NCBI RefSeq assembly: GCF_035084215.1
Contig: NC_090339.1
Coordinates: 29,822,001-29,886,000, forward strand
From: Heptranchias perlo
Taxonomy: Eukaryota
Direction of reading: 5' to 3'
Length of the DNA: 64,000 bases
A program made the position numbers and the translations under genes. Every line of letters begins with the position of its first letter. Within the stretch, counting starts at the first letter, position 1. Below the pieces are notes generated by a model, which saw only the letters and a list, made by a program, of their open reading frames with translations, did no database searches and had not been told where the DNA came from. This document shows, in pieces, positions 5,644 to 33,876 of this stretch.

Positions 5644-6562
5644 TCATTGCAAATAAGAAGTTAAAGTGGAACTATCCCTAACTTTTTCAATGTTCTCAAC
5701 TGTGTCGATAATAGCTTCTATTTTGTCCTGTTCCAGCACATGTGAAGCATTATTTTTGAATTTGTTGAGCAGTGATTCTCTAGACAGTGGCTTTCTCCAG
5801 TGTCCGTAAAAGGTGTCACATTTTCCACTGAGCACATCTCTGTTCTTCAGGACCAGAACCACCTCTCCGTACATCTTCTCAAAACTGGCCACGTTATCTT
5901 CAGGATGCTGAAGCTCCACTTTGTTGAGTAACTCACTGAGATTATCTCGATGGAGTTTACTTTCACTGAATGATTCAATGCTTACATCTCCATCCAACAG
6001 TGCCGAGCAGGCATTAAACTGGAAGGAATGGCGAGCCTCATGTTCCGTCTCTGGGAATGGCCTGTTGATGTATCGGGAAATGGGGACGCGCAGTATGATT
6101 CTTTCAATCATAGAGGGTGAAAAGACACCCTCATTGGCAGTCACCAGCTGCCTAACTGAGGCAGCAGCGTCTACCACCCAGTGCATGCCCAGATGAGCTG
6201 GGAAGCGCTTAAATGCAATATCTTGGTCCTCTAGCAGAAAACGTGTCTGCTCAAGTGGTGCCAGCTCCTGAGGTTGATAATCACCATAGAAAGCAGCAAA
6301 TCCAAAGCAGCCGGGGGTGTTGTCTAGAATTTTAGCATTTCCCTCCATTCCTTTAGAGGCAAGGAGGGCTGCCTCAAAGCCCAGCCGTGTGGCATTGCCA
6401 ATATGGATGGGTTTTGCCTGAGTAGCTGCATTGGCCATGGGTGCCCCTGAGAGTGAAGCTGCAATAGCCAGGGCATTAATACACTGATTGGGGTTCAGTG
6501 ATAGAAATTTAGCTACGGCTGCAGCGCTGCCCATTGTCCCAACCACACTGGGAGGGTGGAAC
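5644..6562 (-). CDS. ACOD1: ACOD1 last coding exon
   Basis: Lies within ORF 5644..6588. Acceptor tttaacag|G at 6563/6562 completes the Arg codon (PKR|FHPP). Stop at 5644-5646. Confidence 0.95.
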
Positions 6563-9500
6563 CTGTTAAATAAAGAAAATATATTCAAGAATCTGATCCT
6601 TTTACTTGTTTATTACTATTACACAGTAACACTTCAATTCAACAGAATTATCAGTTTTGTTGTGATTAATACTTCTACAAAGTGCTCTTTTACAGGTCAG
6701 ATTCTCTACTAGAGCCTCTAAACGAACTCACTGCCCAGTAATCGGCCATTTACATAAATGCTCTTAAGGAATGGTAATAAAACCTGATACCTTTTTGTGG
6801 GTTGTACCCAGAGGTTAAAATGTTTTCTCTAGATGTTTTATACTGTTTTATTACCCTCTACAACTTTTCATTTACTGATTCATTACACTTTTTATTTTGT
6901 TTATTTTTGCCTACAGTGCAGATAAACTGTGACCCAGCTAAGAATAGTTTTTCACAACCCCCAAATTATAATGTGTTGGACCTTTTCCCATTCACTCCAA
7001 TTGTATAATGTTCTTGTCAAACATAATACTGATTTCTGAGCAATGAAATGAATGAAGTACCAAGGAGTGGCATTGGTGTAAAGATTCAAAAGGGAATTAT
7101 CTAGGTAGAAAAGATATGGAAGTATGTGGTGGGAAAAGATGAGGGGTTAATCTATAAAGAGAGAAGAGGGTAAATTTTGACTTTGTGCAATCGTGTAAAA
7201 CTGGTGATAGTCAATCAGTAGCCTATTTTACATCTCTCCCAATGTTTATTACCATTGACTTCAATGAAAATAAAAATCGGGAGAGATGAAAACCAGGCTG
7301 CCAATCCATTTCACACTATTGCGCACTGAAAATCTGTCTTCTCCTGTCCTAAAAATTCTTATGTTATTATGTTGGTAGATATCAGTAGTTAAGTGTAGGT
7401 TACTGCTTCAAATAATATTAGACAAAACAATAACTTTAATGTAGAATGAGGTCTGACAAAAATCATGTCTATCCTTTCTGTTAATCTGGAGCCAAATGGC
7501 TGCTCCTTTCCCCAACACTAACACTAAAACAATTCTACTCTTTCTGCTGACATTTATCATCGTCGCTGGGTCAAGATCCTGGAACTCCCTTCCTAACAGC
7601 ACAGTGGGAGAACCTTCACCGCATGGGTTGCAGCGGTTCAAGAAGGCGGCTCACCACCACCTTCTCAAGGGCAATTAGGGATGGACAATAAATGCTGGCC
7701 TCGCCAGCGACGCCCACATCCCATGAACGATTAAAAAAACATAAAGCAGTAGCCAAGATCTATATAAAAGGAGGGTAAAGTTGTTCCACGTGCAACAGTA
7801 TTAAAAAGGAGACTCTTTGAACACGTCAAACGACACATTTTGATCTATTCGGCAACAACTTTAGTAATTGCTGCACCGATGTTTGAATTTAGTGCCAGAA
7901 TCTTACCTCTTCGGAATGTTGTTGGCCTCTTGGGAGAAGCGCATTAACCTGCCCTGAATTTCAATGCCCACATTAAAGGCCAGCAGGAAGTCAAGGCCAC
8001 TGGGTTTGGAGTTTGGAGGCAACATCTGGGCAGCAGCTAGAAGGGCAGGCAGCACAGCTCCCGAGGGATGGGTGGCAGGGTGCCAGGTGTCATCGAAATC
8101 CATCGAGTGGACCTGAGGGACAAGAAGGGGCAACACTCAGATTAACTCTATGGAAACAACAAGAAATGGGCAGAAGAGTCCGTTGATATGAGGAGAGTTT
8201 TATCATTAATATTTTTCTGCTACTTGTTTGGTTTGGGAAGCCCAGTTGAAAGACAGTTGGAAGTAGATAGATTGAGTACAAATATCTCACCGCGACTCCA
8301 TTGGCGAAAGCGGCCAGAGTGGGAGAAAGTTTTAATCCATTGCGTCCATACACCGAGCTGACTGGGTCTGGGGCAAACATTTGCTGTTAGAAAAAAGGGG
8401 AACAGGTTAGAAAGGAAGGAACTGGACAGCTTACTTTGAGAAATGGTCTATGCGGAGTCTGTTGGCTGAGACAGTGACTATCACTGGTAGAATACGTGTG
8501 CGAGTGAATATTGCAATCATTGGATTCTGTAGACTGGGGCTGCCAATCCGTGCGCAATTTAGTCTTGTCATTTTGACTTCATGCCCTAGTGTAAAATGGG
8601 CTATAGTGTATCGGCAGCCCATTTTGCAGATTCCACATCACCTGTTTTACACACTCGCACGGTCAAAATTACCCCCTTGGATTTATCCCACAAACTTTGA
8701 GAATCAGCGTGAAACGGTCTCCAAGTTAGATAGTCACTTTTGCATTGATATCACCCAAAACCACAAGCCAGAAATTGTGCTGAGTGGCGTAGCACCTGTC
8801 TCTGCAGCTCCTGCTAATTAAAACAACACATGTATTTTCCGCAGGCTCTGTGGCATTGATTTGCTTGATTTTGAAATTTTGTGAAATTGTGCGCTGTCAA
8901 TTCAAACTCTCAGCAAAGTAAGTTGATTTGCATGGAAATGTCTGTCGGAATGGAAGACACGCCCAGAAAATCTGTCAGGAAGTGATATCACGCCCACAAG
9001 CAGACAAACAGACTTCATTCATTTAAAGTTAGTATTCTGGAAGTCATTGTAAACAAAAATTTTAATTTTTTTTATAAACAGGCAAAGAAATAATTGAATT
9101 AAATTAAAGAGACAGAAGGGAAAAGTAAAAAAAAATACATTTTTTAATTGCTAAAAACTCTTAAAATATGGAGTAATATGAGACTCCACATTTTAAAAAT
9201 TTAATTTTTAGTTATCTGGCAGTCATAAAGAGTTATCGCACTTTTAAAGTTTAATTTAGACCTGGTATCTTCAAGATGGCGTAATTAGTTACGATCCAGC
9301 TGGGCGGATGAGCAAGTTTGAAATGTTTCAGTGATTTCAATGATTGCAACGAGGCGATGGCCCTTTAATTCGCAGCTGTCAAATCGCCTGCCAACCAATA
9401 GGAGCAAGTTCACCTCGCAAATTCGCCTGTGCAAATTCAGGAACTTGCTCCTTCCATTAGCCACTAAAAACGCTGTTGAGCTCCTCCATTACTTCGGGAG

Positions 9501-10920
9501 AAATTTCTGCCCCGTTACATAAAGGCGGGAGTGGCTGTATAAACGCAGCCTAAAATAAATGTATACGATGCAGTGTTGTGTTGAAGCTCTGAGATAGCTG
9601 TTTGTGTGTTTAAAGCGAACTCCTATACTTTCGCTGCATGACGGAAACTGACATATTAATGCAGGAATATCATTGTTACTGATCAATGCAGCAGGAAGTA
9701 TTCGTTCAGCACGGAGTGTTGCGGTGACTATATGTTTGAAATTAGTTCACGTGTACATTACCTGGCAATAATTGAGGCAGATATCAAAAACGTGGCTGGT
9801 GCTGCCCAGGACCCCGACCCCAATGTTATCCAGGATCATGCGTTTACTCCTCTGTAAAACCGTGTCTGAGAGATGATCAGCTTTAACCCCAGAGACAAAT
9901 GAGCCGAAACTGCTTGTCACCGTCTCGTTCAAATCCGGCGCCTCGAAAGCTAACACAGAAAAAATACAGTTGTTGTAAAATTGTGTGTGAGGTGTTCCTT
10001 TGTTAAAATATATTTGGAAGCAGCCAATTTAAACTTAATCAAAAGCAGAATACTGCGGACGCTGGAAATCTGAAATAAAAATAGAAAATGCTGGAGAAGT
10101 TCAGCAAGTCTGAGATTGCTGCCTGACTTGCTGAGCTTCTCCAGCATTTTCTATTTTAATTTAAACTGTTATATTTTCCTCCAGAACGAGTTCTATAAAA
10201 CTGTAACAAAAAACTCTCACTTGGAAATAAAATACATTTCCCCGCCAAAGTGATCATATTTCGGAATTAATAGCTCTCTCATGTTAAAGTTGAAAGGAAA
10301 AGTAACACAAGCCTTTTATTTCTTAGGTTTTGTTACAGACTCCGAGAGATGGACTGAAATAATCAAACCTACAATATCAAACAATCAGCAGCGACTTTAG
10401 TTACTTTATTATCGACCTGCCGCTCTATAACTGTATCTGGAATTTAATTCACAACGAGTACCACTAGTTCTGCTGTTACCACTATTGTTGTATGGTTTGG
10501 ACGGATTTCTGCTCGATTTTTTTCAGTGCATCGTCTTTGAGTTGAAGCGAGCAAAAATACTGAGATTTCACACGGCCCTTCCCACCCTCAGTGTCACATT
10601 TGCACCCTACACCTGACTCCAGAAATGAAGCATACACGCATGGATTATCAGTGAACATTTTATTTTAATTTCGTATCAGATAGAAACCAGGTAGGAGGAT
10701 ATTTACCTTTGCGGGAAATCTTATGGTACAGTCGCTTTCCAACTGTGAAGCAGGACTGGGTTTTCTAAAGAGGAACAGAACGAATCACAGTGTTAGCAAT
10801 TAATCTTGAAAAAATACAATTTTTAAAAAATGTAACTAATAATAAAAAAATACAAATATGGAAAAAGTTAAATTAATTTTTCAAAGCTACATTAATATCT
10901 ACCTGCAGTTTGGAAAACAT
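5644..10920 (-). CDS. ACOD1: Cis-aconitate decarboxylase (IRG1), MmgE/PrpD family; 6 coding exons, ~493 aa
   Basis: Minus-strand exons, all GT-AG and phase-consistent: 10920-10903, 10764-10707, 9949-9762, 8383-8291, 8112-7907, 6562-5644 (1482 nt). The translation contains RSKRMILDNIGVG, AAFANGVAVHSMDFDDTWHPATHPS, PKRFHPPSVVG, QAKPIHIG, AFKRFPAHLGMHW, EARHSFQFNAC and FYGHWRKPL, which are typical of vertebrate ACOD1. Confidence 0.96.
7555..7740 (+). mobile_element. 3' tail of second LINE family (family B) in ACOD1 intron 5
   Basis: SWNSLPNSTVGEPSPHGLQRFKKAAHHHLLKGN* plus gggcaattagggatgg... and an A tail; near-identical to the ends at 16810-17000 and 62150-62339. Confidence 0.9.
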
Positions 10921-11006
10921 TCTGGTGCTTTTCTCTTTGTAGCTGTTCTTGCGATCGGGACAAATTTTACTTAGAGAATTGTCTGATTCTGCTGACTTTG
11001 ACCCGA

Positions 11007-11136
11007 TATTTATACAGCATCTCGGAGCAAGAGAGCAGCAAACACACGTCAATCACCCCCGCCCCCCCGCAGGGTCAGGATCAGGGTCAGATGTTATTGT
11101 CACCGATTTGCATAATTAGAATCGGTGGGAACTTCC
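11007..11136 (-). promoter_or_regulatory. ACOD1 proximal promoter (TATA, CRE-like half site, GC box, octamer/C-EBP, NF-kB site)
   Basis: TATAAATA on the minus strand at 11007-11014, about 90 bp upstream of the ATG. Also CACGTCA near 11045, CCCCGCCCC near 11057, ATTTGCATAA at 11106-11115 and GGGAACTTCC at 11127-11136. Confidence 0.7.
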
Positions 11137-12802
11137 TTGAACGCGTCATTGTTCGATCAGAAAAGGCTGAAGTCACAAGTTCCCAATGTTTAGGACTGCC
11201 CTTGGTTTCCAGTAACCCCTGCCTACTTTCCAATAACTACAGGAAAATAACAGGGTGGGGGGATTGGTACCTAAAGTGGTCGTGGATAACACCCCATCCG
11301 ATTCTTTTTTCTATTGACTTCAATGGATGGGCTGATGATTCGGGCTGGCGATTCGCTATCGCCCTCATAGTGTTAGAGGCGGTTTTGCTCCCTATATCTT
11401 TGAGATAAACAATACTTAAAAGTCTCAAACCTTCATATTTCTTTTTATAGCCCTTAATGGCGAAGTTTTTGAGGCCTTCCGCCTAGCAGAAGGACAGTAG
11501 TGCCCCGAAAATGGTGGGGAATGACTTACCGTCCCGTTCCTTGCCATCGCTGTGGCTGCGATAATCCTCCCCGGACCTTCCGCTGATCGACCAGAGCACT
11601 CCCTGATTCAGGCGAATTGGGGTCCTATGACGAGCATAAAGACCTCGATCAACATCTTAGGAGAGTATCGTGTGGAGCGTGCGCCAGGCACACTCTGTCC
11701 TTATCAGCTGGCAGTCCAGCCAAAGAGGATCTCACAGGTAAGTCTGTGTTTATTTTTGTGGGACCACGAGCCGCATGAGTGCTCCTCCAAGTCGCACAAA
11801 AATACTGCAGGCACGGGCTCGTGCCCCTCAGCCTCACATCCCCCTCACCTCCCAGGACCTACCTACAGCTGCTGCCGGCCGACATTCCTGTGGCCCAGAA
11901 ACGACTGCTGCCTCAGGACTCCCATTTGGCGTCCGCAGCTCACCAATTGGATTCATATGAGGACCAGCCCTTAAAATCACGGTGGCCTTTTCGCTGCTGG
12001 AACAGCCGATCGGTGGGCACGCTCTATTGGTTGGCTACCCAAAAGTCAGATCCCACCCCAAATGTACTGCATGTCAATAAGAATGATGCTGCTTTGCCTC
12101 AAACATTTCAATCTATGAATTCAATTGGAGCTGCAACCCAAACAAAAATAAATCAGGGGCAGATGACCCAAACCAGTGAGAGCCAATATGTTGGTCCAAA
12201 AAGTTGTCCTTTTTTGTGTCCATCCAAGTAATAACACAGCCCTGTCACAATGTTGGGCTACTCCTCAAAGGTAACAACACCCTGCTCCAGAGGGTGGCAG
12301 TAATGGTATGGTAAGGAAAGAGACTCATTAAGTCAAACTTCAACCCTGAGGAGGAACCCATCACAACCTCCCTTACAGCCCCATCAAGTATTGCTACACG
12401 AGAATAAGAACACAATATTTGGGCATAGCGAAGGAACCGTCCTTTTTTGCATGATGTCATCTTTATTAATTGTTCTCTCGAGAAGCACAATGATCTCTTG
12501 AATCTATTCAGACTATTCACTTAAATAGATTTCCCTAATAACCTATTCCACAACAAAACCCTCTGGTATTTCTGTCAAAGTGTAAGTTCTCTTACTTTAG
12601 CATGTGTTTCTCATTTGCCAGAAATACTGGATGAGGAAATTTTCACAATGCATTTGCAATGCTGCATACAAAGACCAAAGGAATTCTTCCCAGGGAATTT
12701 GTGTTTTCTTCTTTCCCTATTTACTTTTCTTTGCTGCCTTTTGTGGTTTTTGTAAGCCCACGTTTTCTTCTGTTTTGTTTTGAATTATGATTTTCATCTC
12801 AC

Positions 12803-12953
12803 AGGGGGTGAAATTGGTCTTGGACAGTATTGGAAAAAGTGACTCGGCAGCCCATTTTACACCTGCCCGATTTTCTTTTCCATGCGTGTAAAATGGGCTG
12901 CCGATCCGCTATGGCTCCTTTTTACATTGCTGTCCAAGACTAATTTCACCCCC
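12803..12953. mobile_element. Palindromic MITE (GGGGGTGAAATT...AATTTCACCCCC termini)
   Basis: Arms gggggtgaaattggtcttggacag / ctgtccaagactaatttcaccccc and inner gcagcccattttacac / gtgtaaaatgggctgc. Related degenerate copies at about 7167-7340, 8560-8677, 11247-11390 and 63925-64000. Confidence 0.75.
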
Positions 12954-15269: not shown

Positions 15270-18050
15270 GAAACAAAGATGCCTGAGTTTGCTGGTGATA
15301 TCCAAGTGGAGGGGGCATTGCAAAATACAAAGGATTTGGATAGATTATGAAGTTGGACTGACTGACAAGTGCAGATTTTGTTTAATATGGTTGAATGCAA
15401 GGTGACGAGACTGGGGAGGGGGAATAAGCAGTGGGAGTATAAACTAAATGGTATTACTCTGCAGCACACAGTAGTGGTGAGGGATCTAAGTGTACTAGTG
15501 GATGGCTCACTGAAACCATTAGCACAACAGGCACCAGCAGTTAAAAGAGCAGAATTAGAGAAACAAATAGAATAGGAGAAAATAGAATATGAAAGTAAAC
15601 TAGCAAGAATTATAAAAATGGATTGTAAGAGCATCTACAAGTATGTAAAAAGGAAGAGAGTAGCAAAAATAAACATTGGTCCCTTAGAGGCTGAGACAGG
15701 AGAAATTATAATGGGGAATAACAAAATGGCAGAGACGTTAAACAAATATTTTGTATCTGTCTTCACAGCAGAAGACACAAAAAGCAGATGAAAAATAGGG
15801 GAGAACCAAGGGGCTAATGAGAGTGAGGAACTTAAAATAATTGATATCAGTAGAGAAAAAATACTGGAGAAAATAATGGGAGTAAAAGCTGATAAATCTC
15901 CTGGACCTGATGGGCTACATTCTAGGGTTCTAAAAGAGGTGGCTGCAGAGATAGTGGATTAATTGGTTATGATCTTCCAAAATTCCCTAGATTCTAGAAC
16001 AGTCCCAGTGGATTGGAAGGTAGCAAATGTAACCTCGCTATTTAAGAAAGGAGGGAGAGAGAAAACAGGGAAATGCTGGAATCCATTATTAAGGAAGTAG
16101 TAACAGGGCACTTAGAAAATCATAATATGGTTAGGCAGAGTCAACACGGTTTTATGAAAGGGAAATCATGTTTGACAAATTTATTAGAGTTTTTTGAGGA
16201 TGTAATTAGCAGGGTAGATAAAGGGGAACTATTAGATGTAGTATATTTGGATTTTCAAAAGGCATTCGATAAGGTGCCACATAAAAGGTTGTTATGCAAG
16301 GTAAGGGCTCATGAGGGTAATATATTAGCATGGATAGAGGATTGGTTAATGGACAGAAAACAGAAAGTAGCGATAAAAGTGGCTACGAGAGCAGGTCAGA
16401 GACTGGGTATTCTGCGGCGAGTGACTCACCTCCTGACTCCCCAAAGCCTTTCCACCATCTACAAGGCACAAGTCAGGAGTGTGATGGAATCCTCTCCACT
16501 TGCCTGGATGAGTGCAGCTCCAACAACACTCAAGAAGCTCGACACCATCCAAGATAAAGCAGCCCGCTTGATTGGCACCCCATCCACCACCCTAAACGTT
16601 CACTCCCTTCACCACCGGCGCACTGTGGCTACAGTGTGCACCATCCACAGGATGCACTGCAGCAACTCGCCAAGGCTTCTTCGACAGCACCTCCCAAACC
16701 CGCGACCTCTACCACCTAGAAGGACAAGGGCAGCAGGCGCATGGGAACAACACCACCTGCACGTTCCCCTCCAAGTCACACACCATCCCGACTTGGAAAT
16801 ATATCGCCGTTCCTTCATTGTCGCTGGGTCAAAATCCTGGAACTCCCTTCCTAACAGCACTGTGGGAGAACCGTCACCACACGGACTGCAGCGATTCAAG
16901 AAGGCGGCTCACCACCACCTTCTCAAGGGCAATTAGGGATGGGCAATAAATGCCGGCCTTGCCAGCGACGCCCACATCCCGTGAACGAATAAAAAAAATT
17001 TTAAAAAAAATTTTTTCAGGTTGGCAGGCTGTAACTAGTGGGGTGCCGCAAGGACCGGTGCTTGGGCCTCAGCTATTTACAATCTATATTAACGACTTGG
17101 ATGAAGGGACTGAGTGTAATGTATCCAAGTTTGCTGACGATACAAAGCTAGGTGAGGAGGACACAAAGAGTCTGCAAAGGGATATAGACAGATTAGGTGA
17201 GTGGGCAAGAAGGTGGCAAATGGAATACAATGTGGGGAAATGTGAGGTTATTCACTTTGGTAGGAAGAATAGAAAAGCAGAATATTTTTTAAACAGTGAG
17301 AAACTATTAAATGTTGGTGTTCAGAGAGATTTGGGTGTCCTCATAGAAGAAACACAAAAAGTTAGCATGCAGGTACAGCAAGCAATAAGGAAAGCAAATG
17401 GCATTTTGGCCTTTATTGCAAGGGGGTTGGAATACAAGAGTAAGGAAGTCTTACTACAATTGTACAGGGCTTTGGTGAGACCTCATCCAGAGTACTGTAT
17501 AGAGTTTTGGACTCCTTATCTAAGGAAGGATATACTTGCCTTAAAGGCGGTGCAACGAAGGTTCACTAGATTGATTCCTGGGATGAGAGGGTTGTCCTAT
17601 GCGGAGATGTTGAGTAGAATGCGCCTAAACGCTCTAGAGTTTAGAAGAATGAGAGGTGATCACATTGAAACATACACGATTCTGAGGGGGGCTTGACAGG
17701 GTAGATGCTGAGTGGTTGTTTCCCATGGCTGAAGAGTCTAGAACCAGGGGTCACAGTCTGAGGATAAGGGGTCAGCTATTTATGACTGAGATGAGGAGGA
17801 ATTTCTTCACGCAAATGGTTGTGAATCTTTAGAATTCTCTACCCCAGAGGGCTGTGGATGCTGAGTCATTGAATACGTTCAAGGCTGAGGTAGATAGATT
17901 TTTGGACTCTAGGGAAATCAAGGGATATGGGGATCCGGCAGGAAAGTGGAGTCGAGGTTGAAGATCAGCCATGTTCTTATTGAATGGCGGAGCAGGCTCG
18001 AAAGTTTGTATGGCTTACCACTGCTCCTATTTCTAATGTTTCTTATGTTA
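15270..18050 (+). mobile_element. CR1-type LINE(s), decayed, interrupted by a family-B LINE
   Basis: RT motifs in ORF 16073.. (SQHGFMKGKSCLTNL, YLDFQKAFDKVPH) and ORF 16950..17696 (GVPQGPVLGP, FADDTK). Typical CR1 3' UTR ends at about 18050. Confidence 0.92.
16379..17010 (+). mobile_element. 5'-truncated family-B LINE nested in CR1
   Basis: VATRAGQRLGILRRVTHLLTPQSLSTIYKAQVRS... through to the A tail. It splits the host between RKQKVAI and FSGWQAVTSGVPQG. Confidence 0.9.
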
Positions 18051-18604
18051 CTTATTCTATAAAGGGGGAGTGAATTCTAATAAATTGTCACATATTGCTG
18101 GTTGCTGTAAGGGGACAATCTGTATAGATATGTATGTCTCTCGTTAGCCCTCGTGTTCCTATGGAATTGGTCTGATGCTCAACTCCACTGACATCACAGA
18201 ATGCAAAACTTCTCACAGCCTGCTATCACCGTACCAGGATATCACTGGAGCAGAACGTATTGATTCATGATGTGCGATGATTCTGCAAAGTGTTTGCATT
18301 TTTATATGTACATGTTCTATTTCAAAATGCAAATCATTACTAACAAATAGATTGTAATTGAAACAGGAAAACTGGCAAATATTGAACAATTACAGTCAAA
18401 AGTTGAACATTTAAAAAAAATATATTATCGACAGAAGGGGGAAGTTGTACACCATTTTCTACATTGATATAGTTTGTGATATATACATTCAGCAAGGTAT
18501 TTCCCAGACACCACATAGACAGCATAGTTTTGCATATTTATAGGGTGATTTAAGATCTTCAGGACAAGGGTGGACATGGGATGGGGCTGGCACAGCCGGA
18601 AGGC

Positions 18605-20195: not shown

Positions 20196-21664
20196 AAGGG
20201 GTACACAGGGGCAGTTCCATCTTTGCTAGGGCTGCTTTTGAGTTGGTTCACTCTTTCTACTTAGCTGAGGACCAACATTAATTTGCTGTCATTGCTATCA
20301 ACCTAACCCTCCCTTCTGCAGGGAGGTGTTGTGAGACTTGGGAAGGGAATTATTGCACAGACCTGCAAGAGGTGGGTCCAGACTAATATTTTCCCAGTTT
20401 CAGGCAGATGCCATACATCACGTGCTGTGACTAACATATGTTTTACAGATACTTATTGAACATGCTTGTGGTGAGGGTTCACCATAGTGGGTTGGGGGGG
20501 GGCGGTGGGGAAGTTGGAGAGTTAATGACTACACATTTGCTGCTAGCACTTAAAATTATGGTAATCTGTACTTCTCAAATGGACCTAGCATCTCTGGGGA
20601 CAGGCCTAGCAGAGGGTGGGGTGAGTGTGAGGGGACGCTAAGGCTGGCACCCCAGATCACTTTGAAAAATGGTTTTGGAGGTTGGGCTAGAAGATATATA
20701 TAATGCGCCCCTCCAGTCATATCCTCTCCAGCAGTCATCCAACGGTGAGGGGCAGAACAAATGAAGCTTATGTGGGGTATCTCTCTCTCTTATTTAGCCT
20801 TGTATTCTCCTATCTGTTCTATCTTGTTCCTCCCGAGCTTTCGAAACGGCCATGCTACACATTGTTCTTGCTCCGTGAATCCTCACTCATTGTATTGCAG
20901 TCAAGAGCCATACTACAGTCTCTAACTAAATTCATGCTTCCAAGGACCTCAAAAATCGTGGGACTCCTTAATTTTCCTCATGTCGTGTCATTGGCAAACG
21001 TTTAGTATTACCTAACCACTATTTCTTGATTTACTTTCCTAGTCTTCTGTATCTTGTAGGTACCTTGGGTTCTCAATAATACAAATATCATGTATATGTA
21101 TTATGTAGCAATATACTCCCCGCTGATGAAAAAAGTTAGATGAAACATTTTCTATTGTCTTGTAAACAATATTTTAATACGGTTTCTGAACGAATTAAGG
21201 CGGGAAACAAACTGTTGGATTACTCGTGATCCTGACTATAGCAACAGCATCATTCCGCTTTGTTTATGGAATTCACCCTGCCGCAGACTCCACACATTTT
21301 CAAAGTTTAAAATAGCGACTTTCAGATTATTTTAATCCCGTAGAGGAGCAAATATAGCCTTAATTTTAAGATTTTAAAATATGGTATACCCGTGAATAAG
21401 ATTCAAAAACAAATGAAAAATGATAACTCAAAGAATTGCAGTGAAAATATTTTTCCCTTATTCCAATTTTCTGGGCTGCCTTTTTGATGATGTTATTAAT
21501 TCTTGTAATTTGCAACAATCTCGCACATAAAGCATGACGAATAAGGAAGCTGGCTGTAAGAGCTCGTAAGGTGTAAAACATGTTGTCTGTGAAAATACAC
21601 CAGGAGGTGATCACATTATGGAATTCAATCCCTGCTATTTCCTCCTCCTATGCTCAGCTGACAG

Positions 21665-21736
21665 TATAAAGCTGGGAGCCGCGAAGGTTTAAAATAACAG
21701 CGAGGAAGGTGCTCTCCACGGACACTACATGTAAGC
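21665..21736 (+). promoter_or_regulatory. Putative TATA box and short non-coding first exon of the SatP-YrdC gene
   Basis: TATAAA at 21665-21670 is followed by a short CpG-containing stretch ending in a strong donor (CAT|gtaagc at 21731). The ATG exon at 25993 begins with an acceptor, so an upstream exon is needed. Confidence 0.5.
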
Positions 21737-22899
21737 AGCCGTAACATTTCATTGTACAGTGCATTCGATTAGATGATGCTATTTGTTAATATAGAAACAG
21801 CCCAGGGGTCCAAAAATCTAGAGCAAAGGTTATATCGTTTAAAATTAAGATAATTTAATACATTTATAATCATTGGCTTCGATATCCAAATATTTCTCCA
21901 GAGGGGAAGTAAACTGAAATATCGGTCGAACATGGGCGTATGAAGACAGCTAAAATTGGTTAGATACCTTGATTTTAATTGTGCAATATTAACATAATCC
22001 GATTTAATAAATGCGTTTATGATAATATACTCAGATAACTTTTTCGTTCTAAAATATTTGTGGATCAGATCCAATAAGGACTGACGAATGATATTTTAAC
22101 AATTTCAGGGAAAAGATTAAATAAAACAAATTTCATGTTTCTACTAATATATGGGACTAATTTCCGGTTGTAAAACAAGCGTTAACACAGTTCTGAAAGC
22201 AAGTGGAGCAAATCACTTTCAGAGACCATTACTGTCAATCGGTGATGTGGTGCCTGGTACAATGACACTATTTCAAACTAGGTTCTCTGGACTCCCCCGA
22301 TTCCGCAAGAATGAGTCCTAGACATTGTCAGATTTCTGAACTTTTCTGGAAACACTCAGCCGTTCAGGCAGCATCTATCCTAGCCCTCCCTACCTTCTCT
22401 CCACAGATGCTGCCTGACCTGCAGAGCGTTTACAGCATTTTCTGTTTTTATTTCAGATTTCCAGCAGCTGCAGTAATTTTCTGAATTGTTCTGATTTCTT
22501 GATAGCATGTTATTGCTGTTGCAATGTGCTAATAAAACGTTTTATGCAATTATTGCACTGTTTTCCTTTGGTTGCTGGTCTTGTTTTTGGGAAGATAGGG
22601 ATGGGGATCCCCAGCAATATCATGCAGAAAAGTTTAAAAACCTGTGTGGATATTGTACTTTCTTCATTACCCGTAGATGGCGCCACCTTCATAAGGCTAG
22701 ATCCATGGAGACACCTGCAGGATTTCAATTGGTGCTAAATTCACTCTCATTGAACCCTCCAGTTACTGAATCGCCTTTGAAAATTTTAAAAGAGTCATTA
22801 TTTGTGTAATGCAGTGCTGCTTAGATTGATTATGATTAAAATCGAATGTAGAGTACATTGAACTAAATTGTTCCAATTAGTACTAATAGCAGAATATTC

Positions 22900-25070: not shown

Positions 25071-26003
25071 CCTCTGGCAGAGACCAAGGAGGGGTGAGCG
25101 GGATGGGTAGGAGCTTGGTGAGGTCAGCCCCCAGTGGAAAAAAACTCAACGAGAGAGGAGGATAGGGCAGATGTGGGTGCTACTCATAAGGAAAGGAATG
25201 GGTGCATCGATGGGCTCTTTAGAGAATGCCATGAGAGGCACAGAGTGTGGCTGTGGGTTTATTCAAGGAGGAATCAAGTCTTCGATGACGGCAGGAAAGT
25301 AGGAAGGCGGAGGAGAAGTGATTGGTTGAAGTAGGAATTAGGGGGCAAAGTAACCAAGGGGGAGAAATGAAAGGTCACGTGACAGATTGACAGGAAGGGG
25401 AGGAGACAGAAGAGAAGGGATGGATAAGGGCAAAGAGAAAAAAGAAAAGGAGACAGAAGTATAGGGCTCAGGTCTGGAGCAGTGGCCAAAATGCACACAC
25501 AATTGATTCACAGTTTTGTATTTTGCTGTAGTGAGAATATTGTACTTGTTAAAACAAGTTAAAGCAATTTTAAATCACTTTCATGAGATAACATGTGTTC
25601 AGGAAAATTCACAGGCCCACACATCACCAAATGCTGCTAAACTTGCAGAAGCATGCCTGATCATTAAAGGGTGCTACTGTTCTGTTCGATACTATATCTA
25701 TGTTCCTACATGTTACTGTGTTTACATTTATATGTTACTGTGGCTAAGTTTAATGTTATGATATATAATACATTTATATAGTATCTCCACATCAAGCATT
25801 TCTATGGTATATTTTTCTAAACCATAGGTAATTTTTAATTGTATGATGTATTTTGTCATGAAAGAAGATGTCAAGATCTTGATATGCTTTGTGTTTCATT
25901 CATAAATACATTCTTCATAGATTTAAAGGCAATGTCTAGTTCTTGATGTGCATGTTGCTTAATTCATATATTTCTTTATTCATTTATTCTAGATTTAAAG
26001 GCA

Positions 26004-29000
26004 ATGTCTAGCTCGGAAGGTTTTGCTGCTATATTTTATAGCGAGCCAGGAGTTCTAGGGCTCCTGGCCAATGTGATCAGTGCCTTCCTTGTGGCTCTGC
26101 AGAATTTTGCTCAAGCCAATACAAATATTTTGGCTAATGGAACTGAAAACATCTTGGCAGGTGAGTAACAGCATGACAATGTGCTGTAGCTATAGTTAGT
26201 GATCTGCTCAGTGATAAGGACAACAATATAAAATATCATCTTATTTTGCTTAGACAGCAATAGTGACTGAATTTCAATGATATGAAAAGCTTTGAGATGT
26301 TTTGTTGTAATAATATTACTCAGGAAAAATGGTTTAGGATGATAGGATTTCATAACTCTGATATGAAATATTATGTTTTGTAAATAAAACAAACAAAATA
26401 TGAGCAATTATTATTCCATACTTTGTACTAGAAAGCAGATTAATGGGATCTATTAGAGGGAAAATAAAGATGGATTTAAAAAAATGTGTCATTCAAATAT
26501 TCATTTCAGATTGCAAAGGTGCTATGTAACTAAAGGGAAGATTAGTACATCATTTGCAATAAACAATATTCCTAGAACTACAATATCTGTTTTGCTGATC
26601 TAAAAGTGCTTTATAGTACACTCATTAGGGACAAATTTCTGCAGGAGTTCACTCGATTGTAACTTTGGTTGAAGAGCCGCAGAAACCCCTGAAAAATGGA
26701 AGAAATGCTGTTTACGCGTTTTTCTGGAGTTTCTACAGCTTTTCTGCTGAAGTCATGGTGGACGATCAGGAGAACCCCACAGACATTCACCCCCATTAAC
26801 TGTTAGCTCCCCTATAGTTTAGTGGATTACAGAATGTGCTCTAAAGTAACAATGGAAAAGGTCATCTTGATTAATATTCAGGGTATTAACTACCTTCTAT
26901 TTTAGAAGGGTGTCTATATTCAGGCTCTTGACATTGAAAATAGGGATTGGTTTATACGTTACTATACTTTAACATCACTGCAAAGCAGTATACACTTCAC
27001 AATAACACTAAAGTTGTCAGGACCTGATCTGACCCCTGAAATAAGCAATGTGGGACTCTGGAGAAAGCAGTCTCATATCACTCCCGTTTGACATTGAATG
27101 GGATATAATTCCAGTGCAGTGTCAAACTTGCTCCAAAGTTCCTTGGACCTCCTGCACACTTTATAAACTGACCCAAAGCTAACTTTAATGTTTAGAGAGT
27201 ATAAGCACACCCACATGCTCTCCCTAACTATTTATATTCCATGCGGTGTCAAATCCCAGCACTGTGAGACTGTCTCCTCCAATGATTGTCACACTTTTTC
27301 CCTTTGGGGTCAGTCAGGATCTGACTCCAGAGTTAGGCTGCAACTTTAGAGTTGTTACAAAGCAGAAAGCTCTTCTCAACAAAGCTAAAATTGTAGTATT
27401 AACAAATGCTAAGGAGATTTTGAATGAGGGATCCTTTTTTGAAAGGGCCGCTGATCCTGAGACCCCCCTTTTAAGTTATGCATTTAAACCTTACTTAAAG
27501 TTTATGGCGCTCATGAAGACCATATATTTGAATACCCAGTATAAGAAGTTTTTTGAAGGAACCTATGCTATTAAAGAATTTCCATTGTGTGTTTTCTAGG
27601 TGTTCACCTTATATTGATTGGTGGAGTGACACAACTTGTTGCTGGGCTAATGGCGTTCAGAAAGTACGACCATCTTGGTGGCACAGCCTTTATAGCTTTC
27701 TCAGCTTTGTGGAGCAGCTTTGGGGCAACTCGAATTATTCTGGGAGCAAACTCCCCTCTTAATGCCAGCTCCATCACTCTGTATCCAAAAAACACCAGTG
27801 TTGTAAATAATATTACAAGCACGGCTCTGCCTCCTATTAATGAGTCTGCTGTTGCAGGGCTAGTAGCTTACATCAGTGTAGCATTTATTTTGTCCTTCTG
27901 TTCAGCTACCACTAATTACATCATGCCCTTTGTGTTTGGGGCCATAACACTTACACTCGTTTTTGAGGCTGTAGGTCTCTTTAGCCAATGGGCTTTAATA
28001 GTATCTGGAATCTTTGAACTAGTGATAGTTATCTTTGGGCTTTATGGAGCCACTGCCCTGCTTTTAAAGGGAGTCACCCAGAGATACATCCTTCCTGGGT
28101 TTGGCAATGCATTATTCAATGTACTGCTTCTAGGAACAACTAACAAATCATCTTCTAAGAGCATTGGTGAAGAGAAGAAGAAGAACACCAAATATGCTGA
28201 GCCTATGGCCCTTGGCAACTTGTGCAGTGTGATTTCTCCCTTCATCTTTGCTTTTTACTGCTTTGGGTACATGAAATCCTTTTATGTGGGAGCTGTGTGG
28301 GTCAGCATCAATTCTATTGCACAACTTTTTGCCAGCTATTACGGTTACTTGCGCAATGATGTCTACTTTGCCACTAAATTTGGTGTCCATAGTATGTATT
28401 GGCTTGTGAAGTCCTGGGAAGAGTTCATTTTGACTGTCCTCATAAATGTTGATATTTTAGATAGCAGCAGAGCAAGGATGACAGGTGACTGGTTTTTCTT
28501 GGTCACAGCTTTGATTTTATGTCTGATGTCACTGAATAGAGACAAACTTGAAATAATCCATAATGGCTTTTTTGTTCTTCTCACCATCTCCACCATTCCT
28601 CAGATCAACAGTGTACCATATTACAGATTTTTTGGGGCAGTTTGCTCTATGTACACAGCCCTATCCCTTTATGTAACATTTGCCAGCCTAATCAACTCCA
28701 TAGCAGAAAAGGCATTGATTCCTATTGGAACCCAACTCCTCTCTTCAAAAACATTTCAGAATGTTCTATTTGCCCTGAAAAAAAAGTTCACCACAGCTGA
28801 AGAGCTTCCATCCTTTACTACTGTGCAGCTTCCAGATGCCCTCTTCTACATCTGCAATGGACTGGCAGCCCTGTCTGCCATCCAGAGTGCAAATTTAGAC
28901 CAGGTCCAAATTCATGTCACTATTCCCTGGGTGCTGATTCCTGGAGCTCTCATCCAACTTTATGTGTCCAGGATTCAAGTCCGAGGAGGAAGGCGCTTTG

Positions 29001-32000
29001 GCTCTGTGTTAACCTTCTGCTATGCAGCTTTATGGGCGACTTGGACCTGGCTTCGATTTGCAGGTATATTTATCAATGCAATATTACCATGAACAAACAA
29101 TCGCTAAAGATGATTTATATGTGTATGAACAACAAATGAAAATATTTTCGTATCTCACTTTGTAACTGGGATTTTAGTGTATATGTAATTTTTATTGATT
29201 TTCTGTATTTTCTAAAAATTATATTTCTTTAATCTGCACATTTTTAAATTAAAACAATTCAGATTATTCTTTATTACTAGGAGTGTCCCCAGTCAATCTC
29301 CCTAATGCAAAAATGGCCATTTTTACAAAAATAATCCTGTATTATTAAAATAATAGATGGTCAAGGGAATGAGCTATAGGCATGTATGCACTCCCCATTC
29401 ACTTGGGGCTTAAATTTACACTTGTGATTATACCAACCTCACAGTCACAGATTTGTCTATTATTTATTTCGACACGTCATAGTTCCAGTTTATAAAAAAA
29501 ACTCACACAACAGAAACAATGGAATACCATACGGCTATAAAATATGTTACTGTATGCTATTCAGATTAGCAAAACAGATTTTATTTTTCTCAGTTCTGAT
29601 ATAATAAGATAACACATTAAGGATACATAGACAACACCTAAGATCATGTCACTATTCCCTGTGTGCTGATCTCTGACTTTATGTGTTCAGGATTCAAGTA
29701 CAAGAAGGAAGGTGCTTTGGTATTGTACTATTATTCTGCTACACAGCTATCTGAATGAGCACTACTTTCTTTATCCTGCTAATGACTGTGAGTAATGTTA
29801 TGAATGCTTAACAACTTATACATTATGTTTCTCTTCACTACTTTAACAGAGGCATCAACTCATGTTAACATGGGTTAACACCTCTGCTAAAATAACAAAG
29901 AAAGGAAGTTATTATATGTGTATTAAAATTTCACACAAAAGCATCTCTCACAGTAAGTTCCAAGCTTATATCAATTCTCAGTGATACACATAGACCTGAA
30001 ATTTCCTTAAGAGCTTTCCTTGCCACCATATCTTCACTGGCAATTCCCAGCCATAATTTCCTGTTTCAAGTTAGTCTTTGTATTGTCAATAGTATTATCT
30101 GCTTATATTCATAACTGTGTGTAATGAGTTTCATAAATATGTATTTCTTCTGCAGGTCATTTGTTAAATATTGATCCCAGTTCTGATGGTGGATTCACTG
30201 TGGGTGCCATAGCTTTCCTTATAGTCAACATGTTTCTTATTATCTTAGGTGAGTGTTTTAGTTGCAATTTCTGCTCAGTTTGTGTACTTCAATACCTGCC
30301 GTCCAGGGGGAATTCATTTCTTGTGTGGTCTCTCTCACAGCCACTTATATTAATATAGTGCTGCTCACAGTCACAGTCATCATGGAAGTGATAATCATCT
30401 GTTTTCTACTCTTCACCCTTGAGAGACTACCTCTTCCTTTGGAAGGTCAGTCACTAGCTCAATTTATTTTTAATTTTTAAAAAATGTCTATTTTATCGGC
30501 ACGTGAACACTAAGGACTATTTCCCCCTACTGTTAACCCCACAGGTGTGATGCTGGCTTTGTTCAGTCTTTTCTGTGTTTATGGAGCAGTTGCCTCTTTT
30601 GCCAACCATATGTTTGGGAAACAACTAATTCCTCTGGGTGACCCTCTCTTCAAGGTAAATGCTTAATGGTATCTATTTACTTCTAATATTAATTGTTTTC
30701 CAATGTATTGCACACTGGGAGTCAAGGCTAAGTTTAGTCTTCAGGTGAAGTGGGATTACAGGGCTGAGGATAATTGGACAAGGGCGTGGAGATTCAGTCC
30801 CTATCTTAAAGTCATACATCTGTTCTTATTTTTATATATTTCAATTTTATATTATTATTTGTATTTAATTAACAAAACTTACTACAGTTTGGGAAGCAAA
30901 AAAGTGAAGTTGGTTGGAGCATAGGAGGTTCTATGCAGTACAAGCTAAGGAACTGGGAGACACAGTGCCACCACTGGCAGGAGGGCATGATTACAGTGTG
31001 ACAAGTTTACACAGGCAGTTTCCATTATAAATGTGGCCAATGAAACTTAGAATGAAACAAGCTGACAGGATGTGTACACAGTAGTAGGTACAGCACAGGA
31101 GGAAGCCATTCGGCCCATCATGCCTGTGCCAGCTCTTTGAAAGAGCTATCCAATTAGTCCCACTCCCCTGCTCTTTCCCCATAGTCCTGTAAATATTTTT
31201 CCTTCAATTATTTATCCAATTCTCTTTCGAAAGTTACTATTGAATCTGCTTCCACCATCCTTTCAGGCAGTGCATTAATAATATAAATGTGCAGGAATTT
31301 TGTAAGAAGCAAAATATTCTCTTCCTTTAATGTGGTAAGCTGACATACTTTGTTTCCCAGTAAAATTTGCTGGTCTACCATCATTAATTTGTTTTGAAAA
31401 AAAAATGTCTTTTGTAATGTGAGGTCTAACAGTGAAAGAATGCCAACATTATGCATTATTTTACATATAGGTTTTGACAGAATCCATTACACTTCAGAAG
31501 TCACACTTCAATATGTCAACAATATTTCATGCTGATTTTTTCCTTACCTAGAACTGGAAATTTTGCAAGCATCTACAACTTTGCAAACTTCCATCATCAA
31601 ACAGCAATTAAACACTGATTGAACTATTTACTTAGAGTAGCTAACTGTTGTGACCTTGAATGGGGGGCACTTAAACACAGCTCTATTCTATCAGCAGAGT
31701 AATACATTGTGTATTGCATGGTATAATGCTCCTGTCATTATGGAACAGCCTATCATCTGAGTTTCTGTGAGCAACACCACAAGAAACCCACTAGTTAAGG
31801 ATTAAACTACCTAGGATCATGATCATGGATTTAACATTCTTGATAGTTTATAAACTGCTAAAACGTACTGTTTATGGTTTGGGATGTCATCCAAACTCCC
31901 ACAGCTTTCTAATGCTCCATCAATTTTCTGCTATTTTTTGTTATTTACAAATGTCTTGCCCATTCATTAAAGAAAGGATGGTGTACAAAAGTTGTGCTCA

Positions 32001-33876
32001 TTTATGTAATTGCAAACAATATTTAAGCCTGTTTCATGAACAGAAAAAACTATATAAAACATTCTGACTATAATCTACATTGTCCTGTAACATACCTTTT
32101 ATTTGGCTTCTGAAGACTGCAATCTAGACCTTCTGTGTCGATTAATTTTGGAAAAACCTAAAGGATATTTTCATTATGATACGTTTATCAAAAACAAAAT
32201 ATTTTTCTGAAATGCCTTATACTTTTTTTTCATAAATCACAGCCAGGAAAAAACAAAAAGAAAGACCAAACCTCTTCGTCTTGTCACATTGCTTCTTCAC
32301 GTCAGACTAGCAGTCTACAAACTATTGCAAAGATCTTGGATTCTGGCCGTGTGTGTGGGATCCCAACTGATACTGTGTATGCTCTGGCAGCTTCCTGTAA
32401 GCAGCCACAGGCTGTTGAAAGTATCTACAACATAAAGGTAAGGATGCTAAAATCAGTGAGACAAAAATATGCTCAGACTGGATTCTTACAGCTTTTTATT
32501 CTTACCCAGTAAAATCATTAGCCACAAAGTGCTTTTCTCAGTCTTTTAACGCATGATTGCTGTGTTTGCTTTTCCAGGAGCGTCCTGCAGAGAAGCCTAT
32601 CTGTATATGTATTTCCAATCTGGACCAGCTTTCTGCTGTGCATCCTCCATTCAGCCCCTTGCTCTGGGAGTTCATGAACCATGTCTACCCTGGAGGGATC
32701 AGCTGTATTGTGAAGAAAGGAGAATGGCTAAAGAAACTAGGTATGTATTGTGATTGGTAGATCATTTTGAAGCAGGTGGTGGTCCCTATTCAAACAGCCA
32801 GTTACATCAGTTAATCAGTGTTAATCAGAGTGAGATTAGATTCTAAGAAAGTTCTGAAAATCAGATTGTATCCTTTATTAAAGGTGTTGGCGCTGCCTAT
32901 GATCGTGTTGGTACAAAGGACAGTATCATGATCCGTGTTCCTGACCACACTGTGACAGCCCATCTTGTGAATATGACTGGGCCACTCGCCATTACGTCAG
33001 CGAACCCGAGCGGAGAGCCTGATAGCACCCACCATGACATGGTTATCTCGTATGTATTTAAATATTACAATTGAATTAATTGTTGTTTTACCTTATAGTA
33101 CATGCATTTTTCATTGTAAGTGTTATCGTGTTTATCGACAGGCGTCTTGCACACAAGATTGATGGTGTTCTATGTGATGGAAACTCTAATGAATTGGTTG
33201 CTTCCACTGTTATCAACTGTACTAAGATTGATGAAGGTACTACAGCATTCTGTTCAAATATATTAATTATATACTCTTTTGGTTACTGATTAAACAGATT
33301 TTATCCAATAACTTTTACATTGTTTTAGCCCCTAAGGTGAGCCCCTATGTGTGAGTTTCTTTAAATTATATATTAGTTTTAATATGCTAACATAATCATA
33401 GTTGAGGTAGGAGAAGGAGTTGCAGTTGGACTGGCAGCACACATAGCAGTCTCATTCAGTGCTGAGTAATTTTCTGACATAGCATTTGTTACATTGATGA
33501 ATGTACTATTAACACTTGGGCAGATCAGCCCAATGCAACTCATGTTGACACCTGTGAGGTTCATAGAGGACGTACAATTGTAAACTGATTTTTCCAATAA
33601 CTTTGGCATTGGCGTAGCCCCCAAGGTTTACATATGAATGAGTTTTTTAAAAATAAGATGCTAGTATTAAAATTACTTTTTTCAATGATTCACTGCTTTT
33701 AATGCTTTCTAAAGACCACTTCAGCAGTAATTGTAATGGTCTTCAGCTGTGATTAATATTTTTCTAATAAAAATGATTTACTTTCTACAGAAGGAATCAC
33801 CATTATTAGAGAAGGCTGTGTCCCAGCAGTGAGGGTCATGCAGCTTTTTGAACGAGTGAAGAACAAACTTGACTGA
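26004..33876 (+). CDS. Uncharacterised polytopic membrane protein: 3x GPR1/FUN34/YaaH (SatP/AceTr)-like repeats plus C-terminal YrdC/Sua5 domain; 10 coding exons, ~877 aa
   Basis: Coding exons, GT-AG and phase-consistent, 2634 nt with no stops: 26004-26160, 27600-29063, 30156-30248, 30341-30445, 30545-30654, 32243-32437, 32578-32740, 32884-33049, 33142-33236, 33791-33876. SatP-like motifs: SEPGVLGL, GGVTQLVAGLMAFRKYDHLGGTAFIAFSALW, NHMFGKQLIPLG. YrdC motifs: GIPTDTVYAL, KERPAEKP, IRVPDH, TSANPSG, ASTVI, IIREG. Confidence 0.9.
27600..29063 (+). CDS. Large 1464-bp exon encoding most of the membrane region of the SatP-YrdC protein
   Basis: Lies within the strongly hydrophobic 501-aa ORF 27587..29092. 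Acceptor ttttctag|GT at 27599/27600; donor GCAG|gtatat at 29063. Confidence 0.92.
31085..31275 (-). mobile_element. CR1 3' end fragment (intronic)
   Basis: NALPERMVEADSIVTFERELDK plus CR1 3' UTR. Confidence 0.85.
32243..33876 (+). CDS. YrdC/Sua5 (TsaC-like) domain exons of the fusion protein
   Basis: Five exons translate to ...ILDSGRVCGIPTDTVYALAAS...IYNIKERPAEKPICIC...VYPGGISCIV...DSIMIRVPDH...GPLAITSANPSGEP...IDGVLCDG...ASTVINCT...ITIIREGCVP...stop. Confidence 0.9.

Follow-up and report, generated by a model that had tools for sequence, protein, structure and literature searches.

Fungi and bacteria as a rule keep the genes of a small-molecule pathway in a cluster, an arrangement that vertebrates rarely show. 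The itaconate clusters of Ustilago (tad1/cyp3/rdo1/itp1) and Aspergillus terreus (cadA/mfsA) combine, under common regulation, a decarboxylase, an oxygenase, an Rdo1-type VOC protein, and an exporter such as Itp1 (PMC12290011, PMC11626831). Here, we compare them with a 64-kb window (C15:29822001-29886000) of the 3.25-Gb genome of the shark Heptranchias perlo, read together with about 130 kb outside it. In this window, the decarboxylase gene IRG1L lies beside a gene encoding a SatP-like channel fused to a YrdC domain (ATO-YrdC; fusion a). The shark block likewise holds the decarboxylase, an oxygenase, and a VOC gene of Rdo1 type, and co-regulation of most members is seen in zebrafish expression tables. 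It differs from the fungal clusters in carrying an Fe/2-oxoglutarate dioxygenase instead of the P450 and AceTr-fold channels instead of the MFS exporter, in its additional YrdC and ES1-like enzymes, in a gene spacing of tens of kb, and in having itaconate as its only known product. The block is probably a co-regulated unit. We tentatively favor its interpretation as an inducible, itaconate-linked make-tailor-export cluster, which we regard as possible rather than probable. Positions are window-based unless prefixed with C15 or C6, and published sources are cited for their accessible passages.

The channel gene belongs to the ATO family, defined by three Gpr1/Fun34/YaaH repeats followed by a Sua5/YciO/YrdC domain (Ghasemi et al., iScience 2026, PMC13316224; bioRxiv 10.1101/2025.05.26.656167). 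Published and shark proteins share a length of ~900 aa, three six-helix repeats, a C-terminal YrdC domain, and a division into two clades; the paper proposes a two-chain ring and suggests that substrate import is coupled to the enzyme. Its accessible passages contain no mention of IRG1, ACOD1, "itacon-" or "synten-", no expression data for the fusion genes, and no reference to the clade b arginine loss described below. They also state that mammals lack the family and that protostome members possibly reflect horizontal transfer, whereas we find the family in monotremes, molluscs in both clades, and amphioxus in clade a. As for the decarboxylase, a preprint places VOC, YrdC, Fe(II) oxygenase, and GAT genes around both IRG1L and the invertebrate gene pIRG1 (Szeligowski et al., bioRxiv 10.1101/2022.06.17.496652). 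The accessible text of that preprint mentions no "transporter", channel domains, co-induction, or VOC likeness to Rdo1/PA0880. A literature search, short of most subscription journals, returned no paper joining the ATO-YrdC family with the IRG1L locus. Both halves are hence already in print; their join and its chemistry are new.

The minus-strand gene of the window, a member of the MmgE/PrpD family, is intact and runs from 10920 to 5644 in six coding exons. These comprise exon 1 with the start codon (10903-10920), exon 2 with a basic, targeting-peptide-like N-terminal extension (10707-10764), exon 3 (9762-9949), exon 4 (8291-8383), exon 5 with the DDTWHPATH active-site stretch common to human ACOD1 (7907-8112), and the last exon with the MmgE/PrpD C-terminal part and stop codon, defined by Pfam and the gene model (5644-6562). 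All introns are GT-AG, the single stop lies at the end, and the 493-aa product is identical to P0177. The initial annotation described an intact ACOD1 here; the intact gene stands, and the ACOD1 identity is ruled out. The gene is best identified as IRG1L, the paralog with a mitochondrial-type N-terminus, because its nearest relatives carry that name, its N-terminus is extended and basic, CLN5 lies on another contig, and no further IRG1-type locus turned up in the genome (matches on C15 only; two matches of six candidates). P0177 and most shark and ray matches are named "immunoresponsive gene 1, like", and "cis-aconitate decarboxylase-like" is also used among the nearest relatives. The extension of ~30 residues (seven K/R and no D/E in residues 1-26) is absent from human ACOD1, and human and mouse ACOD1 can be aligned with the shark protein only from residue 34 onward. 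CLN5, which we take as a marker of the ACOD1 neighborhood, is on C6 and not C15, which by this marker places the minus-strand gene outside the KCTD12-CLN5 setting of ACOD1. KCTD12 is a published marker of that neighborhood, and the same preprint reports that cartilaginous fish hold IRG1L only, that therians lost IRG1L, and that the zebrafish protein is a matrix-located cis-aconitate decarboxylase (bioRxiv 10.1101/2022.06.17.496652). Decarboxylase activity of shark IRG1L would follow from this ortholog, and the active-site stretch matches human ACOD1.

On the plus strand, the intact ~877-aa membrane-protein gene noted initially is confirmed as an ortholog of si:ch211-153b23.3, with 10 coding exons (26004-33876), canonical splice sites, and a product of 877 aa. 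Exon 1 (26004-26160) encodes the start of repeat 1, and exon 2 (27600-29063) encodes the remainder of repeat 1 with its glycosylation-sequon loop, repeat 2, and the first half of repeat 3. The second half of repeat 3 is encoded by exons 3-5 (30156-30248, 30341-30445, 30545-30654), and the linker and the YrdC domain with its PTDTVY, KxR, and SxN motifs and the stop by exons 6-10 (32243-32437, 32578-32740, 32884-33049, 33142-33236, 33791-33876). Pfam detects PF01300 on exons 6-8 and PF01184 at 26.5 bits on exon 2 and 21.8 bits in the full-length ortholog P0001, against a cut-off of 25. A 3,231-nt contig from run X1 joins exon 2 to exon 10 in one spliced transcript, and its six listed GT..AG joints fit the model, so the channel and YrdC parts are transcribed together and the fusion is real. 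The transcript evidence comprises four runs from at most two samples (X1-X3 are one sample), which we guess to be RNA, none being recorded as such; exon 1 and a putative non-coding first exon near 21700 are not among the contig pieces listed. Intron 2 contains a degenerate duplicate of the last part of exon 2 (29632-29772; 53% identity over 32 residues).

Linkage of the two genes was traced through consecutive identifiers and contig size, proxies that carry neither orientation nor distance. On these proxies, it holds from sharks to birds. Identifiers are consecutive in Callorhinchus (P000848/849) and Mobula (XP_062917458/459), and consecutive or nearly so in chicken (XP_040525771/774), Hemitrygon, Albula, Prochilodus, Phrynocephalus, Chrysemys, Mauremys reevesii, Platysternon, and quail. 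Conservation of the linkage, named as a check in the initial annotation, is thereby observed in cartilaginous fish, teleosts, a lizard, turtles, and birds. IRG1L and fusion a lie on contigs of equal size in 40 of 49 species, a hand tally that leaves out contig-less entries and three sea turtles with split haplotypes. The dioxygenase and fusion a are 2-4 locus tags apart in Channa, Megalops, and Parambassis, and in scallop the dioxygenase and the second fusion gene (fusion b) are on contigs of equal size (2.1 Mb).

Orthologs of fusion a exon 2, at 57-90% identity, occur in sharks, bony fish, amphibians, reptiles, birds, and platypus, with echidna in the platypus cluster; none from marsupials or placentals is among the 120 listed of 201 matches. 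For the two monotremes, this overturns the earlier remark that no mammalian counterpart was known. A profile search returned full-length homologs from amphioxus, scallops, oyster, land snail, and argonaut, together with 1,000-aa membrane-YrdC proteins from environmental sets (13 of 150 matches looked up by name). This range, with amphioxus, molluscs, and monotremes and no therian listed, is the one reported for pIRG1/IRG1L. Gar and Xenopus carry several near-identical fusion and YrdC-only copies on one chromosome (P0020/P0169-P0176 and P0046/P0162-P0167); in Xenopus, IRG1L is likewise present in several copies, two of which flank the dioxygenase.

Fish homologs of the dioxygenase are named Zgc:174917, and zebrafish 153b23.5 is presumably the ES1-like gene. 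In zebrafish infected with Shigella (searched rows of a 23,517-row table; PMC6980646), five of seven candidate members are significantly induced, by 8- to 66-fold. The fusion a ortholog 153b23.3 ranks fourth in the table (log2 fold change 6.04), irg1l sixth (5.81), and zgc:174917 eighth (5.68), followed by 153b23.4 (4.05) and 153b23.5 (3.08); acod1 reaches 3.79, and 153b23.7 (1.50) is not significant in this set. Housekeeping paralogs stay flat, with log2 fold changes of 0.27 for yrdc, -0.36 for gatd3a, and -0.03 for phyhd1, as do kctd12.1 (-0.23) and cln5 (0.34) (PMC6980646). In Mycobacterium marinum infection, the induced orthologs rise 14.2-, 9.0-, 10.5-, and 7.0-fold (PMC8391356). Co-induction with irg1l, the other check named initially, is hence seen for 153b23.3 in two infection sets. 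In addition, one co-expression module has irg1l, 153b23.3, and 153b23.5 among its hubs (PMC11140123). In another listing, 153b23.5, irg1l, and zgc:174917 decrease together (PMC5841277), a comparison that we leave out of the count. Chicken ES1 (LOC422305, chromosome 4) is induced by Salmonella, with no role assigned in the accessible text (PMC4256799).

The order on C15 is IRG1L (minus), fusion a (plus), a GLOD5-like VOC exon (29.893 Mb), a PhyH-type Fe/2-oxoglutarate dioxygenase (29.905-29.909 Mb), an ES1/GATD3-like gene (minus; 30.102-30.107 Mb), and fusion b (plus; 30.124-30.131 Mb), over ~430 kb including duplications. All the VOC, YrdC, Fe/2-oxoglutarate oxygenase, and GAT genes of the IRG1L-lineage synteny are therefore on C15 within this span. 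These genes were located by motif and homolog; Pfam genome searches for DJ-1/PfpI and 2OG-FeII_Oxy missed them. Neither a P450 nor an MFS exporter turned up in the window and the ~130 kb fetched, with no search aimed at them. The ES1/GATD3-like gene and fusion b are divergent and ~16 kb apart (C15:30102128-30130678), repeating the layout of IRG1L and fusion a.

A chemical clue to itaconate comes from the VOC gene. Its best solved relatives are GLOD5 and STM3117, and the exon matched, through plasmid hits, the VOC gene of a Pseudomonas aeruginosa operon that also encodes MaoC, acyl-CoA dehydrogenase, MmgE/PrpD, CoA transferase, and lyase proteins. The three shark VOC exons are 56, 56, and 69% identical to this itaconate-operon VOC, the PA0880-type protein used for the comparison, or about 60% when taken together. 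The lactone 2-hydroxyparaconate, on which the lactonase PA0880 acts, impairs the growth of bacteria on itaconate, and PA0880 shares 59.7% identity with Rdo1, a protein of the Ustilago itaconate cluster (PMC9875883). As in the shark block, PA0878-PA0886 places the VOC gene (PA0880) beside an MmgE/PrpD gene (PA0881), which encodes a methylsuccinate isomerase (PMC12290011, PMC11626831), and a transporter. The bacterial operon is catabolic, and its CoA enzymes have no counterpart among the genes located in the shark block. With a VOC gene of Rdo1/PA0880 likeness and a dioxygenase in the same block, the earlier idea of an operon-like immunometabolic cluster is stronger than its proposers knew, with IRG1L as the partner.

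Automatic names present the dioxygenase as a threonine chlorinase. A halogenase is ruled out by its H-x-D motif, the feature that separates such dioxygenases from halogenases. A prokaryotic operon ancestral to the block is likewise unsupported. The prokaryote genome scan with IRG1L, which reaches close relatives only, returned no relative, and at the four loci of the dioxygenase scan no YrdC, SatP, MmgE/PrpD, ElbB, or VOC neighbor was seen, among 37 of 100 frames examined by Pfam and all 100 by YrdC and repeat profiles, a small sample that does not prove absence.

The channel part resembles SatP/Ato1 (AceTr, TC 2.A.96) in its six-helix fold and its conserved Q, W, and terminal P-x-G. Those proteins consist of a single repeat, form homohexamers, and carry the NPAPLGL signature and the FLY constriction (F17, Y72, L131), both of which are replaced in the fusion. 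The model of P0001 has 18 membrane helices with a mean pLDDT of 70.4, the YrdC part being poorer. Repeat 1 superposes on the SatP fold (Z 20.4, root-mean-square deviation 2.4, 171 residues aligned), repeat 2 matches 5zug by profile (E 5e-8), and repeat 3 resembles repeat 2 (HH probability 95.7%), while comparisons of repeat 1 with repeats 2 and 3 score weakly. Foldseek alone gave no match at E 0.001, and an Atlas search of the membrane part scored below 0.9, a lead only. The previously proposed SatP/AceTr-type channel fused to YrdC is thus borne out for fold and fusion and fails for signature and constriction.

At the signature, EPGVLGL, EPMALG, and PDALFY-type stretches take the place of NPAPLGL(M/S). 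At the constriction, mapped from the profile alignment for repeat 2 and by eye for repeats 1 and 3, the F17 position is N23 (98 of 98 sequences), D262 (89 of 98; S in the window protein), and N472 (98 of 98) in repeats 1-3, and the Y72 position is F/Y86 in repeat 1 and H316 (98 of 98) in repeat 2. Shrinking the same phenylalanine in yeast Ato1 (F98A) lets succinate in (PMC8379382), so N, D, or S at this site is compatible with larger or more polar cargo, and names none. Glycosylation sequons occupy the first outer loop in 95 of 98 orthologs, at a density of 7.0 per 100 residues, whereas none of the other stretches counted exceeds 1.5, a crowding that points to the secretory pathway rather than to mitochondria. 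Nothing in the analysis points to phagosomes, the location suggested initially.

The YrdC domain, to which the initial annotation assigned no role, is the best conserved part of fusion a, with 67 of 189 columns invariant. Paralog a shares with TsaC/Sua5/YRDC, HypF, and TobZ the KxR and SxN tetrad (K708, R710, S801, N803), found in 98 of 98 sequences and in the window protein, and it keeps the PTxTVY, R, and ST motifs. Differences from TsaC/Sua5/YRDC lie in the fusion to a membrane protein, inducibility, a separate clade, and the lack of a Kae1 domain in the chain (domain scan of P0001). A separate PF01300 locus is present on C29. Paralog b (the 153b23.4 clade) lacks the KxR arginine, with K-x-Q or K-x-L in the seven rows shown and the shark exon, and its clade of fish and molluscs has an SH-aLRT support of 97 in a quick tree of 92 rows. 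Fusion domains in this tree stand apart from the prokaryote-type sequences sampled; canonical eukaryotic YRDC was left out, so the tree gives no origin.

A further well-supported membrane-YrdC clade of up to ~1,100 aa comes from environmental or microbial-eukaryote sets (P0327, P0329, P0333, P0336, P0337, P0344, P0345), and the fusion may be older than animals. In a third, long-branched group (P0358, P0378, P0435), one member of which is from a frog, the YrdC motifs are largely erased, likely a pseudo-enzyme form. In a predicted complex, YrdC-a with YrdC-b of one fish scored 0.88 against 0.01 for the best control, with runs agreeing in 100% of contacts and partner pLDDT of at least 85; the pairing mark is reached by 116 of 157 solved pairs and two of 215 mismatched pairs. 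Human YRDC is itself a dimer and also accepts other amino acids (10.64898/2025.12.03.692196). With a symmetric interface and a human dimer on record, the prediction supports pairing of the YrdC domains without choosing between hetero- and homodimer.

Upstream of the window by ~129 kb (C15:29696000-29770000), the left part of the block is duplicated; the copy comprises an intact IRG1L, a fusion a that is disrupted and cut short, a VOC gene of three exons, and a dioxygenase. The two IRG1L coding sequences are 99.7% identical (five of 1,482 bases and one residue differ), against 86-96% in the flanks, a contrast that suggests gene conversion or else strong selection. In the copy of fusion a, exon 2 carries three indels, an acceptor is altered, and later exons are absent from the fetched DNA; given these indels and the divergent flanks, an assembly artifact is unlikely. 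In the copy closest to the window, the first and last VOC exons located flank the dioxygenase (C15:29893434-29919495), the middle exon was not found, and an extra dioxygenase last-exon fragment at C15 29959045 suggests local rearrangement. On C6, another gene of ES1/GATD3 type is found 37 kb from CLN5 (C6:100263993-100307310), where ACOD1 would be expected. No IRG1-type match occurs there, and the region has the look of an old paralogous segment from which IRG1 was lost. Elsewhere in the window, remnants that we take to be a Harbinger-type transposase (minus) and Penelope-like GIY-YIG elements (both strands) lie at 52927-53826, 55246-56956, and 60531-60896.

Divergent transcription of IRG1L and fusion a, described initially as head-to-head, stands as an orientation and not as tight pairing. 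The start codons are 15,083 nt apart with LINE-type reverse-transcriptase remnants (16046-20089, plus) between them, and repeats elsewhere in the fetched DNA, LINE reverse-transcriptase frames included, match no less than 4,306 nt of this interval. A bidirectional or shared promoter is ruled out by this 15-kb, repeat-filled gap. A putative IRG1L promoter (11007-11141, minus) contains a TATA-like box at 11014 and, grouped 95-125 nt upstream of it, matches at 11108, 11127, and 11133 to what we take to be the C/EBP, kB, and GAS consensus patterns. The TATA-like hexamer upstream of the plus-strand gene (21665-21670) lies 10.65 kb from this box, in agreement with the ~10.7 kb stated before; with 64 TATAAA occurrences in 64 kb, it is no better than chance by itself. 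NF-kB-like sites near both genes were also proposed. GGGRNNYYCC, with nine matches in the whole window, occurs 113 nt upstream of the IRG1L box; on the plus-strand side there is none in 20700-21750, and the closest (22603) lies ~940 nt downstream of the box.

In the make-tailor-export interpretation, IRG1L would turn cis-aconitate into itaconate and CO2 in shark mitochondria. By analogy, the PhyH-type dioxygenase would oxidize this product at the place of the fungal P450, and the GLOD5-like VOC protein, from its likeness to the PA0880-type lactonase, may open a lactone such as 2-hydroxyparaconate. The 877-aa protein is modeled as a glycosylated membrane protein of the secretory pathway with three SatP-like pores per chain. 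Two chains, possibly one per linked paralog, would form a six-pore ring with the YrdC domains paired on the cytosolic side; here, the fold is a prediction, the ring a published proposal, and the pairing predicted in this work. The widened polar constriction would release small carboxylates made by the cluster. YrdC-a, whose motifs are present, may be active as an adenylating enzyme for ATP, bicarbonate, and an amino acid, and in place of tRNA modification would supply the pathway with an activated carbamoyl group beside the pore. We infer, and do not observe, the shared pathway, every substrate except cis-aconitate, the cargo, and the heteromer. A more specific proposal is unlikely at present: that molluscs, amphioxus, and vertebrates other than marsupials and placentals share a biosynthetic cluster for an undiscovered infection-induced metabolite. 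Itaconate would then be oxidized and lactonized, joined to a carbamoyl-amino acid activated by the membrane-bound YrdC, or both, and would leave through a six-pore heteromer that combines an active ATO-YrdC chain with a degenerate one, with human GLOD5 as a leftover orphan lactonase.

Several observations weigh against the make-tailor-export interpretation, and some can be read in other ways. Only IRG1L among the members has an enzyme or transport assay. The IRG1L preprint sees no "obvious functionally related gene clustering" in its accessible text (bioRxiv 10.1101/2022.06.17.496652), and glod5 is barely induced (log2 fold change 0.65, not significant, PMC6980646; 1.9-fold with M. marinum, PMC8391356). 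Nine of the 49 species have no contig of equal size, mostly, it seems, through other assemblies or unplaced scaffolds, with two frogs possibly real, and identifiers are apart in X. laevis, X. tropicalis, Hypanus, echidna, and Tympanuchus, yet on equal-sized contigs. No reptile, bird, or monotreme is among the 120 listed of 176 dioxygenase matches, so that in amniotes IRG1L and the channel may persist in the absence of the dioxygenase, whose nearest solved relatives are the natural-product enzymes 6zyk, MysH, EvdO2, and SyrB2, and PHYHD1, none named for itaconate. The VOC subfamily has a wide distribution (178 plasmid records at E 1e-20) and sits in unrelated neighborhoods at two of three plasmid loci inspected. 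On the channel, the AceTr signature is lost, and the invariant E14, E175, E253, and E370 are acidic, with no obvious favoring of anions. The YrdC site is of threonine type, with no evident use in itaconate chemistry, and only the a/b pair was folded, so its pass may reflect the likeness of the two domains.

The YrdC points could instead mean that the fusion is a channel-enzyme centered on this domain, importing bicarbonate or an amino acid through its pores or releasing a carbamoyl-amino-acid-adenylate product. Such a product could be a cyclized threonine derivative altered further by the dioxygenase and the ES1-like enzyme; IRG1L would be a co-regulated neighbor, with itaconate not the cargo. 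Conservation is highest in YrdC, the fusion predates the mollusc-chordate split and also occurs in eukaryote-like environmental proteins, the dioxygenase resembles amino-acid-tailoring enzymes, and polar N/D/H residues replace the FLY constriction. Threonylcarbamoyl-AMP (TC-AMP) without a partner decays within minutes, and the breadth of human YRDC and the published enzyme-coupled import fit as well. Yet this leaves unexplained both the Rdo1/PA0880-like VOC gene beside IRG1L and the fusion as its immediate neighbor in many lineages, and we consider it doubtful. Co-induction could also be accounted for by shared enhancers. Chemically unrelated stress genes, for itaconate synthesis, glyoxalase-type detoxification (ES1-like, GLOD5), and lactate or acetate efflux, would then be held together by inflammatory regulation alone. 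ES1/ElbB and VOC proteins have glyoxalase-like folds, and glyoxalase activity occurs among them. Induction strength varies between members, the shark block spreads over ~430 kb with local duplications, and the C6 segment beside CLN5 has an old paralogous look, all of which suits such a neighborhood. However, where three members also have housekeeping paralogs, only the clustered copies are induced, fungal and bacterial itaconate clusters draw on these same classes of enzyme, and linkage extends to molluscs, making a purely regulatory neighborhood distinctly unlikely. A channel dedicated to exporting itaconate itself, or a phagosomal channel for it, as first proposed, would agree with the AceTr fold, the strongest co-induction being with irg1l, a pore altered in a direction that admits dicarboxylates, sequons of plasma-membrane type, and the Itp1 exporter of fungal clusters. 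Plain itaconate export is nonetheless the less likely version of the export idea, and as a full account it appears improbable.

What the comparison suggests is a fungal-style cluster for making and exporting a defense chemical, retained by animals outside the marsupials and placentals. If the make-tailor-export interpretation is true, fish, amphibians, and birds make a defense metabolite beyond the reach of mammalian immunology, and strongly induced, unnamed infection genes of zebrafish and chicken would gain a testable function. It would also give a first role to an animal AceTr-fold channel, place YrdC chemistry outside tRNA modification, and offer a candidate substrate for GLOD5. Even a weaker interpretation amends two existing texts, in that the shark gene is identified as IRG1L and the channel family persists in monotremes.

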